Part shown: in pieces, positions 1,457 to 31,087 of the stretch | Numbering within the stretch: the first letter of the stretch is position 1 | How the letters are laid out: each line of letters opens with the position of its first letter | Source: a virus | Reading direction: 5' to 3' (one strand) | Virus record (IMG/VR): IMGVR_UViG_3300008107_005910 | Span: 1 to 64,000 of that record | Length of the DNA: 64,000 nt | Notes under the pieces: generated by a model | Told to the model about the DNA's origin: nothing | What the model saw: only the letters and a program-made list of their open reading frames with translations | The model's database searches: none | Position numbers and translations under genes: made by a program

Positions 1457-1485
1457 TTGACAGATAAGTAGTATGGCTATATAAT
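1457..1485 (+). promoter_or_regulatory. consensus sigma70 promoter
   Basis: TTGACA (1457-1462), 17 nt spacer, TATAAT (1480-1485); predicted start ~1492. Confidence 0.85.
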
Positions 1486-1491
1486 TATAAT

Positions 1492-1601
1492 GTGGTCGTA
1501 AGCAAATCGGGAAAGCTCCAGGCTCGCTGTGAAGCGATGCTATGGGTCGGGCAACGTCTTAGACAACGCCTATGGAGGTTCGAACCCTTCCGACCACACC
1601 A
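1492..1601 (+). tRNA. non-canonical tRNA-like RNA (110 nt, no standard anticodon loop)
   Basis: Acceptor stem GTGGTCG/CGACCAC + ACCA; D-arm AGC-AAATCGGGAAA-GCT; T-arm GGAGG-TTCGAAC-CCTTC; extended arm capped by GTGA; long variable arm. Confidence 0.8.
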
Positions 1602-1628: not shown

Positions 1629-1961
1629 ATGAAAAAGATTTTGTTATTTTTTGTTCTTTTTGGTTTCATTAATTACTCAGTTGCTGGCAATGATCCTTAT
1701 CTGTCTGCTACAGAAACATATGACGCCACTAAAAAATTAACAAACACTTCTAAAATAACTTGGATTACAGTTGACGAAAAAGATGTTTTAAAAACTTGCA
1801 GAGAAAAAGGTGTAGAGTTGAAGTCTAAAACAAACTTTATCGATCCTAGAGCATGTAGTTTTTGGACTAAAGATTTCTGTATTGTGATTACAAGTAAAAC
1901 CCCAATTTTGGGTTCCTTAGAACACGAAATTCGGCATTGTTTTCAGGGACACTGGCATTAA
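1629..1961 (+). CDS. secreted hypothetical protein with HExxH motif
   Basis: Start moved to MKKILLFF (GGAG RBS, signal peptide); LEHEIRHCF near the C-terminus. Confidence 0.7.
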   Translation: MKKILLFFVLFGFINYSVAGNDPYLSATETYDATKKLTNTSKITWITVDEKDVLKTCREKGVELKSKTNFIDPRACSFWTKDFCIVITSKTPILGSLEHEIRHCFQGHWH

Positions 1962-4537: not shown

Positions 4538-5353
4538 ATGAACATAGATTTTTCAAATCTTGAAACACAAGGTTATATAGTGATACCTAACTTTTTATCA
4601 ATTGAAGAAATTGATATGTTCATTACTGATAAAAATACCAGTACAAGATTGTTTAATAGTTTTCATAGCATACCAATGCCATCAAAAACTATTCTTGAAA
4701 AAATTTCACCTAAAGTATTAGACCTAATGAATCAGATTGGTGACAATACGTCAATTAAAACCAATGTGATATCAATGTTATCCTTATATATGGATACGTC
4801 TAATTTTCAAATGCCTTGGCATCAAGATCATGTGTCATGGTACATTGATCAACATCATGATAATTATTTAAATTTTTATATTTCAATTATTAAACCTAAT
4901 TCAAATTTATCAGGATTGAGTTTGATTCCTTACGATGTTATTGATAAAAATTTTCCTGAGTACAAAGAAAAATTTTTAGGGAAAGGGGCTAAAAGATTTT
5001 TCCCAAATAATAACAAGACAACTGTATTTGATGACGAAACTGGTGAGGAATATGATTTACCTATCAATATTGACAATGTACAAGTGTCCCCAAAAATAAA
5101 TCCTGGTGATGCTTTGATATTGAGAGGTGATGTAATTCATAAAACACAAGACACATTAACCAATCGTTTATCTGTTACAATTAGATGTTTGGATGGTAAC
5201 TTTGTTGTTAGTAAAAAGAAAATGTTAAGTACTGAATGTAAGACAAAAAGTTCAATTTTAACATCAAATTTAGATCTTTATAGAGCAGTGATAAATGCTT
5301 ATGGTGATAAAGAAACTATGACCATTTTTGAACTGTATGAAAAATGGAATTGA
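4538..5353 (+). CDS. phytanoyl-CoA dioxygenase-like 2OG-Fe(II) oxygenase
   Basis: GYIVIPNFLS, WHQD (HxD), PGDALILRGDVIH, NRLS. Confidence 0.8.
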   Translation: MNIDFSNLETQGYIVIPNFLSIEEIDMFITDKNTSTRLFNSFHSIPMPSKTILEKISPKVLDLMNQIGDNTSIKTNVISMLSLYMDTSNFQMPWHQDHVSWYIDQHHDNYLNFYISIIKPNSNLSGLSLIPYDVIDKNFPEYKEKFLGKGAKRFFPNNNKTTVFDDETGEEYDLPINIDNVQVSPKINPGDALILRGDVIHKTQDTLTNRLSVTIRCLDGNFVVSKKKMLSTECKTKSSILTSNLDLYRAVINAYGDKETMTIFELYEKWN

Positions 5354-5733
5354 GGAATTGTTGTAATCCCTTCAAAGCGAAGGCATCTTGGACGGGGGTT
5401 CGATTCCCCCCGGGTCCACCATAAGGAGATTAGTATGAACGACGATTTAACTCCCCTAGCAATAGGCGTAGTGGTTGTTTTAGTAGTTTTTGCTCTAGTC
5501 CTTTTATGATGGGCCCGACCGGTTTCGACAGGGTGAGATAGTAGAGACGGCAACACGGTAGGCGATGACCGTAAATCAAGCAAAACAAGTAAATGCAAAT
5601 GCAAAAGCAATTACAACTGAAGCAGAAGTAATGACTTTCACCTGGGATCTTCCAGCTAACGAAAGCCGTTACGCTCTAGCAGCCTAAGAAACTGCACTTC
5701 CGAGGTAGGACTTACCTTGTTATCAAAACAACC
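5354..5733 (+). ncRNA. ssrA: tmRNA, circularly permuted (two-piece) gene
   Basis: Acceptor piece ends GAC-GGGGG-TTCGATT-CCCCC-CGGGTCC-ACCA (5421) before the 5' piece GGGCCCG-ACCGGTTTCGAC (5511); G3:U70 pair; tag frame 5595-5687 ends YALAA*; outer ends approximate. Confidence 0.92.
5435..5509 (+). CDS. 24-aa hydrophobic peptide inside the tmRNA intervening segment
   Basis: AAGGAG RBS then MNDDLTPLAIGVVVVLVVFALVLL*; fills the spacer between the CCA and the tmRNA 5' end. Confidence 0.6.
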   Translation: MNDDLTPLAIGVVVVLVVFALVLL

Positions 5734-5760
5734 AAATAGCACCTTCGGGTGCTATTTTTT
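5734..5760 (+). terminator. intrinsic terminator
   Basis: AAATAGCACC-TTCG-GGTGCTATTT + T run between convergent units. Confidence 0.85.
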
Positions 5761-5762
5761 GA

Positions 5763-6227
5763 TTATCTCGGATAAACTAGTACGCTTTCCTCAGTACCAA
5801 CAATTGGATCAACAATAAGTTTGCCAAATCCCAACATTGTTTCGTTAGAGTTAATAGCAATTTCTTTATTGTTGTTACTGTTAGTTATGGCAAGATCAGT
5901 ACTTTTCCCAATACCATAAATTTGAGTAAGACTAGGTACAAGTACACTAGCCCACTTCAACGCAGTGTCGCCGACGCTGGTTGGCTGTTCAATTCTAGGA
6001 CTGTTATTAGACTGTGTTCCCTGCTGTAGTGCGATAACTGCTGCCACTCGAGCAGTAGTGTCTCCACTGTTGGCGATTGCTTGTAATGTTTTATATCGTT
6101 CAATGTCTGCTTGTGCTCGCGCAACTGCAATATTTTCTTGAGTTTGAGCATATTGTTGATAATTCCCAGATGCGCATCCGGTTAGAAAAATTAAGCCAAT
6201 TGATATGGCTAGAACAGATTTGTTCAT
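5763..6227 (-). CDS. lipoprotein
   Basis: Signal peptide with lipobox LTGC. Confidence 0.75.
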   Translation of the reverse strand: MNKSVLAISIGLIFLTGCASGNYQQYAQTQENIAVARAQADIERYKTLQAIANSGDTTARVAAVIALQQGTQSNNSPRIEQPTSVGDTALKWASVLVPSLTQIYGIGKSTDLAITNSNNNKEIAINSNETMLGFGKLIVDPIVGTEESVLVYPR

Positions 6228-7356: not shown

Positions 7357-7896
7357 ATGAAAACAGTTGGACATAAATTAGAAAAATTCGCAATCACTGG
7401 TGTTAAACCAGGTCAGCCAGAAGATGCTTTCTTTGACATTACAGATGAAAGTTTTGCTGGCAAGTGGAAGGTAATCGTTTACTATCCAAAGGACTTCACA
7501 TTTGTTTGTCCTACAGAAATTGTAGCCTATGACAAACTAGCAGGCGACTTTGCTGATCGTGATGCAGTATTGCTAACAGGTAGCACAGATAATGAATTCT
7601 GTAAAGTTAGCTGGCAGAAAGCACACCCAGATCTACAAAAAATCACTCACACCCAGTTCGCTGACACACAGCGTGGTGAGTTGAGCTTGATCGAACAACT
7701 TGGTGTATTTTACGCTCCAGCAGGTGCCGCACTTCGCGCAACATTCATTGTTGACCCAGACAACGTTATCCAACACGTTACTGTCAACAACTTAAACGTT
7801 GGTCGTAGCCCAGAAGAAACATTGCGTGTACTTGACGCATTGCAAACTGGTGAACTATGTGCTTGTAACCGTACAGTAGGCGGGGAGACATTATAA
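7357..7896 (+). CDS. ahpC: peroxiredoxin (alkyl hydroperoxide reductase C)
   Basis: YPKDFTFVCPTE peroxidatic motif; RATFIVDP; GELCAC. Confidence 0.95.
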   Translation: MKTVGHKLEKFAITGVKPGQPEDAFFDITDESFAGKWKVIVYYPKDFTFVCPTEIVAYDKLAGDFADRDAVLLTGSTDNEFCKVSWQKAHPDLQKITHTQFADTQRGELSLIEQLGVFYAPAGAALRATFIVDPDNVIQHVTVNNLNVGRSPEETLRVLDALQTGELCACNRTVGGETL

Positions 7897-30289: not shown

Positions 30290-31006
30290 TTATTGGTTGT
30301 CAAGTGTAACTGTAGTATTCAATACGGCTGATCCAAATGTCCACTTAGCAGTTGCGCCACTAGCGAACTGTGCGCCAGCAGAACTGGTACCACCCCAAAC
30401 GTTTGCGGCTGGAACCAATGTACACTTACGATTACTAATCTTTGTAACAAAATATGTACCGCCTGCGCTGTCAGTTGCTCTAATGCTCATTTGTCCATCA
30501 GCTAGATTTTCAGTAGCAACAAGTTTTAAAATTGCTGTGCCATCTGCTGTCTGTACTTTGAAACGACGTGAGCCTACTTGCTTAATAACATCTCCAGCTG
30601 TGTTATCACTACCGCCAGGAATTTGTGCTTCACACATCAACCCATTTTGACGAGCAGTACCACTAGATGTTAAAGTAGCAACAGGGGTAGCACTTCCAGA
30701 TCCTCCTGCAACACTACCGTTGAAAGTAATAGTTGGAGCACTTGTGTAACCAGAACCTGCTGATACAACTTCCACTGTATAAGCAGTTGCGCCAGTAACT
30801 ATAACTCTTAGTACTGGTTTAGCTCCGCCTGCAACGTTAGGAGCACCAATTTGTGCCGCTGGAATTGGATATGTACCGTTTACTAGATCAGCCAATGTGC
30901 CAGCTGGAGCTGTTACGCTGGCGATGCTTTCTCCGCCTACGTTTGCTGTGCCAAAATCTTGATAGTTAGTATTGGCAAAATATTTTTTGTTTAATGGACG
31001 TCCCAT
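30290..31006 (-). CDS. probable virion structural protein
   Basis: MGRPLNKKYF start; GSGYTSAPTITF beta motif; Gly/Ala/Thr-rich. Confidence 0.7.
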   Translation of the reverse strand: MGRPLNKKYFANTNYQDFGTANVGGESIASVTAPAGTLADLVNGTYPIPAAQIGAPNVAGGAKPVLRVIVTGATAYTVEVVSAGSGYTSAPTITFNGSVAGGSGSATPVATLTSSGTARQNGLMCEAQIPGGSDNTAGDVIKQVGSRRFKVQTADGTAILKLVATENLADGQMSIRATDSAGGTYFVTKISNRKCTLVPAANVWGGTSSAGAQFASGATAKWTFGSAVLNTTVTLDNQ

Positions 31007-31087
31007 TTGTTTTCTCCTTATGTTGACGTTCTAGGTCATACGCTGTGGGTACAGCATAAACTTGCCCTATGCAAGCTGACTGTATAT

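Follow-up and report, generated by a model that had tools for sequence, protein, structure and literature searches.

The gene at positions 1492–1601 of the window, the 64,000-nt stretch of phage DNA analysed here, very probably encodes a selected, non-decoding RNA derived from tRNA-Leu. Its product has the acceptor stem, D arm, T arm and CCA end of a leucine tRNA, with a closed, capped helix where the anticodon arm belongs. At least 76 members of the same family occur in phage contigs, every one of them directly at a promoter and none with a 7-nt loop at the anticodon position.

The window comprises positions 1–64,000 of the 76.8-kb IMG/VR virus record IMGVR_UViG_3300008107_005910. CheckV put the completeness of this record at 22%, so that it represents a fragment of a giant phage; the closest complete relative, G001, has a genome of 364 kb. 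Window DNA was also present in DNA sequencing runs from lakes, ponds and other freshwater, which belong to 13 studies. ARAGORN counted no canonical tRNA in the record. The host is probably a betaproteobacterium, because the phage tmRNA is of the betaproteobacterial type (Table 1). The tag that ARAGORN reads from this tmRNA has 30 residues and ends in YALAA, and a ClpP gene lies 2.7 kb upstream of it.

Architecture of the RNA

The initial annotation described this RNA as a 110-nt tRNA mimic without an anticodon loop, and checking base by base verified the acceptor, D and T arms and the CCA end (Table 1). The D arm proper (1501–1517) has a 3-bp AGC/GCT stem and an 11-nt loop with GG, and the third acceptor pair is G3:C70. 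The bulged, GNRA-capped helix of ~11 bp that had been proposed at the anticodon position was likewise present, with 11 pairs, two bulges and a GTGA cap, as was the symmetric AAC/AAC internal loop of the variable arm. The proposal that T1491:A1598 extends the acceptor stem did not hold up: at position −1 the 76 members have U (64), A (10) or C (2), while A73 is unchanging. A tRNA-His type was rejected for want of a conserved −1:73 pair (G−1:C73).

A tRNA finder had been suggested as a check. ARAGORN made no tRNA call at 1492–1601, and the Rfam tRNA model RF00005 passed its cut-off of 29 bits only by aligning over 1–71 around a 43-nt insertion at the site of the 17-nt anticodon arm. RF00005 was the only Rfam model to match at 1400–1700 at E-values up to 10, with no match to a tmRNA or intron model. 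Single-sequence minimum free energy folding was uninformative (z = −1.8), with the D/T region misfolded. In the structure read from the sequence and its relatives, the anticodon position is sealed: codon reading is impossible, and anticodon nucleases are offered no loop.

Table 1. Positions of the RNA, its parts and other features in the window
Feature	Position	Strand	Remarks
Sigma-70 promoter: TTGACA (1457–1462), 17-nt spacer, TATAAT (1480–1485)	1457–1485	+	12/12 consensus match
Anticodon-less tRNA-Leu mimic, 110 nt, G1 to encoded CCA	1492–1601	+	RF00005 30.0 bits; R1 95.6 bits
Acceptor stem, 7 bp (GTGGTCG with CGACCAC)	1492–1498 with 1591–1597	+	Pairs checked base by base
U8, A9 and leucine-type D arm (AGC / AAATCGGGAAA / GCT)	1499–1517	+	A14, A15, G18, G19, A20a
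Anticodon-arm replacement helix, 11 bp (3 + 3 + 5)	1518–1545	+	Bulges A1542 and T1538; GUGA tetraloop 1529–1532
Long variable arm: GGC/GCC, AAC/AAC 3×3 internal loop, GUC/GAC, UUA triloop	1549–1571	+	Read directly
U48 and T arm (GGAGG / TTCGAAC / CCTTC)	1573–1590	+	T arm 1574–1590
Discriminator A73; CCA	1598; 1599–1601	+	Read directly
Cysteine phosphatase, HCX5R loop	596–1063	+	80–95% identical in thousands of environmental proteins
Downstream ORF, 110 aa, signal peptide, C-terminal HEIRH (HExxH) motif	1629–1961	+	Several Cys; no family match
Permuted two-piece tmRNA, betaproteobacterial type	5304–5759	+	tmRNA_permuted 137 bits; beta_tmRNA 119 bits
Rfam freshwater-2 cis-regulatory motif	31004–31076	−	65.8 bits, cut-off 49.9; ends in RBS and ATG

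Conservation and covariation in the family

The 123-aa gene upstream of the RNA led to 39 related loci, in 14 of which the RNA was located with nhmmer; further members were collected from IMG/VR with a 3′ pattern and then with an independent 5′ pattern. The distinct members, at least 76 in number, are 100–116 nt long. A covariance model built from 51 of them, R1, gave the members scores of 76–127 bits and every canonical tRNA 44 bits or less.

In the 51-member R1 alignment 95.4% of cells are base paired and 19 of the 31 pairs have compensatory changes, the alignment being fitted to the structure and hence favouring these figures. In the controls, none of 500 shuffles matched the observed values, and slid partners were only 24–46% paired. 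The seven acceptor pairs are 100% paired in these 51 members, with compensatory changes at 4:69 and 5:68. Pairing reaches 92–97% in the replacement-arm helices (helices 3 and 4), where 8 of 9 pairs have compensatory changes, and 97–99% in the variable-arm helices (5 and 6), where all seven do. Exchanges in the variable arm can be followed by eye, from GUC-UUA-GAC to GAC-UUA-GUC and GCU-GUA-AGC.

Comparison with the nearest relative, L003, points the same way. The two RNAs are identical at 110 of 111 positions (99.1%), and the sole change leaves a G-U pair. Identity falls to 74.8% in the upstream gene and to 78% in the promoter region, and the DNA downstream is too different for alignment. On this evidence the RNA is extremely unlikely to be a tRNA pseudogene in decay or a functionless, selfish remnant of a promoter and tRNA. 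Nothing beyond the missing anticodon speaks for such a reading, and against it stand the compensatory changes in every helix, an RNA that is 99% identical where its neighbouring gene is 75%, and its presence in giant phages and ~20–70 kb contigs alike. Decay, the outcome that the initial annotation had set against its own reading, is not what the homologues display, since they keep the structure.

Constant throughout the family are the acceptor stem, the leucine-type D arm, U48, the T arm, A73 and CCA, together with the first two C:G pairs in the replacement arm. Neither U48 nor G49 changes anywhere in the alignment of 51 members. Most members share one layout of the variable arm, with an NUA triloop as its loop in 64 of 76; one subfamily has a 2-nt bulge and a hexaloop in place of the 3×3 loop. 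Within the D stem, the majority subfamily has a U·C mismatch or a bulged U.

The replacement arm is far more variable. Its length ranges from ~4 to 12 bp across the family, and its cap, a GNRA loop in the majority, is elsewhere CAU, UUAG or a larger insert. Because the apical arm varies while a 7-nt loop at the anticodon position was found in 0 of the 76 collected members, closure of the arm appears to be what is selected, rather than any one motif. A closed but variable arm argues both against this arm as the business end of the molecule and against splicing to a normal tRNA.

It is accordingly very improbable that the RNA is the precursor of a decoding tRNA-Leu, with the hairpin as an intron or an editing substrate. 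That reading can draw on the general likeness to tRNA-Leu and on the forced label 'tRNA-Pro(ggg)' that ARAGORN gives to four short members. Yet the insert is at most 28 nt and without the hallmarks of bacterial tRNA introns; group I introns are typically well over 150 nt, and a bulge-helix-bulge was not seen. The arm is a plain covarying helix with loops of 3–4 nt, in which there is no conserved triplet or U33-like context, and nothing in it could give a standard anticodon loop. The core of the initial annotation, a non-decoding tRNA-like RNA transcribed almost leaderless, thus gains the strong backing of covariation, of 76 members without an anticodon loop and of the fixed promoter register described below.

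Leucine identity

Among the 349 tRNAs that ARAGORN called in the fetched loci, those for leucine were closest to the 5′ part of the family. The D arm alone, compared in loci that had not been fetched by a tRNA-like pattern, scored on average 10.1 against tRNA-Leu and at most 6.4 against the other 19 isotypes, and its nine best matches were all tRNA-Leu. Similarly, the best canonical match of R1 in phages T4 and T5 was the T4 tRNA-Leu. A15, G18, G19, A20a and U48 are invariant in the 51-member alignment, and A73 is present in 76 of 76 members. A73 and CCA also occur in all of the ~25 members found by the 5′ pattern alone, and are therefore no artefact of the search.

Escherichia coli leucyl-tRNA synthetase (LeuRS) has A73, A15-U48, G18G19, A20a and the D/T-loop contacts as its determinants and relies on neither the anticodon nor the variable arm; tRNA-Leu variants without both arms are still charged (PMC9976931). 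Every one of these listed determinants is kept by the mimic, although the rules are those of E. coli and may not be those of the host. None of the alanine (G3:U70), histidine (G−1:C73) or serine (G73) signatures was found in the mimic or its family. At the level of sequence, then, the mimic retains the known LeuRS recognition set. Since the enzyme ignores the anticodon and its determinants are kept, recognition would be expected, and the host LeuRS probably binds the mimic and charges it with leucine.

Leucine identity also bears on the idea that the tRNA body is a scaffold, displaying a functional arm (the variable arm or the GNRA-capped helix) to a protein or another RNA. The variable arm has the same order of base helix, 3×3 loop, 3-bp helix and NUA triloop in most members and is longer than normal tRNA-Leu arms, and GNRA loops are classic docking modules. 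Such a constant and unusually long variable arm suggests a specific partner. On the other hand, the arm at the anticodon position changes both its length (4 to ~12 bp) and its loop type between subfamilies, one subfamily swaps the 3×3 loop for a 2-nt bulge and hexaloop, and the retained LeuRS determinants are left unexplained. We consider a scaffold decidedly unlikely.

Promoter and predicted transcription start

The initial annotation placed the transcription start at the 5′ end of the RNA, behind a perfect promoter. The match is indeed 12/12, and G1492, the G1 of the mimic, falls at +7 relative to the −10 box. The −10 hexamer stops exactly 5 nt short of position −1 in 71 of the 76 collected members, and this fixed register makes G1 the predicted start. 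All 76 members lie directly at a promoter. The gene therewith has what can be read as a fixed leaderless promoter, and a start at +1 is an unusual design among bacterial-type tRNA genes. Two metatranscriptome runs contain the RNA region alone from relatives, but as assembled contigs (some with the promoter, one beginning at 1490) which indicate neither transcription nor RNA ends.

In the window the −10 box is part of a tandem duplicate (TATAAT TATAAT, 1480–1491) immediately 5′ of G1492. A second perfect TTGACA-17-TATAAT promoter lies at 2563–2591 and overlaps the end of the ClpP gene.

Genomic context

What follows the mimic differs among phages: three unrelated kinds of gene, and in L003 a terminator-like site. 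In 58 of the 76 members, including G001, an Hc1-type gene starts ~45 nt downstream with no terminator between. This gene encodes a histone H1-like protein of 63 aa (for example L043:5847–6080 and L219:1268–1500, both on the minus strand). Between mimic and Hc1 lies a small hairpin with a UNAUAAG-like loop and a covarying stem (UACUA/UAGUA, UUCUA/UAGAA), which may be the 5′ end of a released Hc1 mRNA. Seven members are followed by a tRNA-Arg(CCU) operon.

In the window itself the next gene is the ORF at 1629–1961. It is probably co-transcribed with the mimic, because the sequence after the CCA has five T in a row but lacks a canonical terminator. Homologues of this ORF (28–36% identity) begin 27–28 nt after the mimic in L110 and L116, and a search for relatives starting from the ORF found none. 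In L003 the ORF is missing and the mimic is followed by a hairpin with a T-rich tail and then by ClpP; ClpP lies just downstream of the mimic in both the window phage and L003.

This arrangement invites a reading in cis, with the mimic as the 5′ module of early transcripts and the released tRNA-like piece as a by-product. In one variant, the paired 5′ triphosphate end would resist 5′-end-dependent decay and cleavage after the CCA would free the downstream mRNA or tRNAs; in the other, the promoter-proximal RNA would act on the transcribing polymerase. The position at a promoter in 76/76 members, 71 of them in the same register, fits such a role. So does the want of a terminator at most loci, with Hc1 ~45 nt downstream behind its covarying hairpin, and in the window the RNA runs into ORF 1629–1961. 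Hc1 genes unlinked to the mimic come with a consensus promoter and leader hairpin of their own, so that the mimic looks inserted between strong early promoters and genes. A processing handle, however, needs no A73, A15/U48, G18G19 or A20a, yet all are invariant. The downstream partner varies by clade (Hc1, the tRNA-Arg operon, a secreted protein or the terminator-like hairpin of L003), and the RNA is much better conserved than its flanks. We regard a cis-acting module as unlikely, although it is the chief rival of the reading favoured below.

None of the neighbouring genes emerged as a partner. Hc1 was rejected because it lies 20–80 kb from the mimic in G003, G004 and G005, and because G002 has Hc1 behind its own promoter and no mimic. 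The Radical SAM neighbours of the majority clade gave generic family matches only. The phosphatase is on the same strand as the mimic and 0.2–4.2 kb from it in 28 of 132 loci, and in the giant-phage clade this well-conserved gene is a neighbour of the mimic. Its confident structural model (pLDDT 88) has a generic dual-specificity fold for which the baculovirus RNA phosphatase ranked only 46th; as the fold match does not discriminate, an RNA 5′-triphosphatase that trims the leaderless 5′ end is a bare idea, and this candidate was set aside.

Searches of five phage records, including the complete G001, found no L/F-transferase, Pth, Pth2 or class Ia synthetase. The mimic is also independent of other tRNA genes, 65 of 75 family-bearing loci being without an ARAGORN tRNA.

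Distribution

The family occurs in giant phages and in contigs of ~20–70 kb. The complete genome G001 has a single copy, and another complete relative is without the mimic. [quoted passage not shown]

Two pattern scans of 185,579 cellular species genomes returned one true member. It occupies positions 5799–5911 of L231, a 6.1-kb contig binned to a Crocinitomicaceae MAG. This member is probably phage DNA rather than a Bacteroidota gene, because the promoters of the family are of the sigma-70 type. The mimic family is essentially viral.

Comparison with known tRNA-like RNAs

The family is absent from Rfam 15, and no description of it was found in the literature searched. The nearest kind is formed by the known, unexplained tRNA-like stable RNAs of T4 and T5.

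With class II tRNA-Leu, as modelled in RF00005, the mimic shares the 7-bp acceptor stem, U8, A14, A15, G18G19, A20a, U48, the T arm, A73, CCA and a long variable arm with a UUA-type loop; its D arm resembles tRNA-Leu more than any other isotype. It differs in having a capped helix of 4–12 bp instead of the 5-bp anticodon stem and 7-nt loop, a longer variable arm with an internal loop, and its own promoter with a start at +1. It is also often the sole tRNA-like gene of its neighbourhood.

T5 RNA1 and RNA2 and the T4 species 1 RNA (rnaC) are likewise phage-encoded stable RNAs of tRNA shape, with acceptor and T arm, no usable anticodon arm and the annotation 'unknown function'. The D arm of T5 RNA1 is leucine-like (GAATTGGTAGA), as in the mimic, and the acceptor and T arm of T4 rnaC resemble those of a tRNA. 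These RNAs nevertheless score 13.8–18.7 bits with R1, against at least 76 for members, and are therefore analogues rather than demonstrable relatives. They are 125–144 nt long, belong to tRNA clusters and arise by processing of polycistronic precursors. The annotation shows no promoter next to their 5′ ends, and in the sequences of T5 RNA1 and T4 rnaC the 3′ strand of the acceptor is not followed by CCA.

The tRNA-like domain of tmRNA is another tRNA mimic without an anticodon, and aminoacylation of tmRNA is independent of one. It has, however, the alanine identity pair G3:U70, a D arm of reduced size and an mRNA-like domain, and works with SmpB; in the mimic the pair is G3:C70, the D arm is complete and there is no coding part. 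Among other bacterial tRNA mimics, YrlA, skipping-rope, DUF2693-FD and salivarius-1 gave no Rfam match at 1400–1700, though not all of these need have Rfam models.

Among cellular genes, the Staphylococcus tRNA-Gly used in cell-wall synthesis and the Bacillus cereus tRNA-Other are tRNA genes kept beyond normal decoding. Both retain the anticodon loop, and they are cellular, not viral. The bacterial tRNA mimics of a 2026 preprint have a connectivity that differs from that of the phage mimic.

The closest experimental parallel comes from the laboratory. Minimal tRNA-Leu constructs without anticodon and variable arms are leucylated if A73 and the D/T-loop contacts, which the mimic has in common with them, are intact (Larkin et al. 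2002, cited through PMC9976931). The anticodon arm does matter for editing by LeuRS (PMC9976931). The mimic may therefore be charged and yet be treated differently.

Proposed function

The usual explanations for tRNA genes in phages are a supply of codons' tRNAs and the replacement of those that host defences cut. Both explanations fail here because the mimic cannot decode. The features of a tRNA that enzymes grip are kept, and the one used by the ribosome and by anticodon nucleases is lost, which would point to a non-translational viral use of the tRNA shape.

With moderate confidence, we take the RNA to be a non-decoding mimic of tRNA-Leu that is made early, acts in trans, can probably be leucylated and engages host factors gripping the acceptor and elbow. 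Points against this reading are the run without a terminator into Hc1 or, in the window, into the ORF, the lack of any partner enzyme in the phage genomes searched, LeuRS rules taken from E. coli, the D-stem irregularity of the majority subfamily, and the long variable arm with the specific partner that it suggests. Judging from the promoter spacing, host RNA polymerase would initiate at G1 from the consensus early promoter. Given a start at G1, the 5′ end would be mature at birth and an RNase P cut unneeded. The 3′ side would be cut back to the encoded CCA, or freed from the downstream sequence, and a separate RNA of ~110 nt would presumably accumulate. This RNA would adopt the tRNA L-shape with the acceptor stem, elbow and discriminator of a class II tRNA-Leu, the long capped helix taking the place of the anticodon arm, and would be recognised, and probably leucylated, by host LeuRS. 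Acting in trans early in infection, it could compete, as decoy or sponge, for a host factor that binds tRNA by its acceptor/elbow half or its CCA end; LeuRS and tRNA-directed defence enzymes are examples. A second possibility in trans is that it serves as a leucine donor to a non-ribosomal transferase.

The initial annotation had offered a decoy for anticodon nucleases and an aminoacyl donor as candidate roles. The former now seems the least likely: the mimic lacks the anticodon loop that would have to be the bait, and immunity to such nucleases would be automatic. The latter becomes somewhat more plausible, as the mimic keeps the whole identity set of bacterial LeuRS.

More tentatively, the mimic may be a leucine-chargeable, ribosome-blind tRNA that freshwater phages express from their strongest early promoters as a counter-defence or metabolic tool. 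As a counter-defence, it would titrate LeuRS or a host enzyme whose target for attack or modification is the acceptor/CCA half of tRNAs. Attackers of the acceptor end exist, reportedly among them MenT toxins, which lengthen acceptor stems, and Cas12a3, a nuclease acting on tRNA tails. The Schlafen nucleases of bacteria act on anticodon arms, those of several class I tRNAs, without specificity for leucine. As a metabolic tool, the mimic would feed leucine to a non-ribosomal transferase, for example in the Leu/N-degron pathway.

If this more tentative reading is correct, this family and the stable RNAs of T4 and T5 would form a general class of viral tRNA mimics with a sealed anticodon. A non-translational use of the tRNA shape may also explain T4 species 1 and T5 RNA1 and RNA2. 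With its length of 110 nt, a promoter of the E. coli consensus type and a predicted recognition by LeuRS, the RNA makes a compact testable system.

Other tRNA-like genes in related phages

Further tRNA-like RNAs of 117–124 nt sit within the tRNA arrays of related giant phages, at L021:7445–7561 and 7568–7690 and at L010:1004–1127 and 1132–1254, and score 34–44 bits with R1. The one at L021:7568–7690 has a leucine-type D arm, A73 and CCA, with a second T-arm-like hairpin at the site of the anticodon arm. Two tRNA genes, L006:1885–1985 and L010:900–992, combine a UAU (Ile) anticodon loop with a long, class II-like variable arm; ARAGORN labels them 'tRNA-???' or a 92-nt tRNA-Ile.
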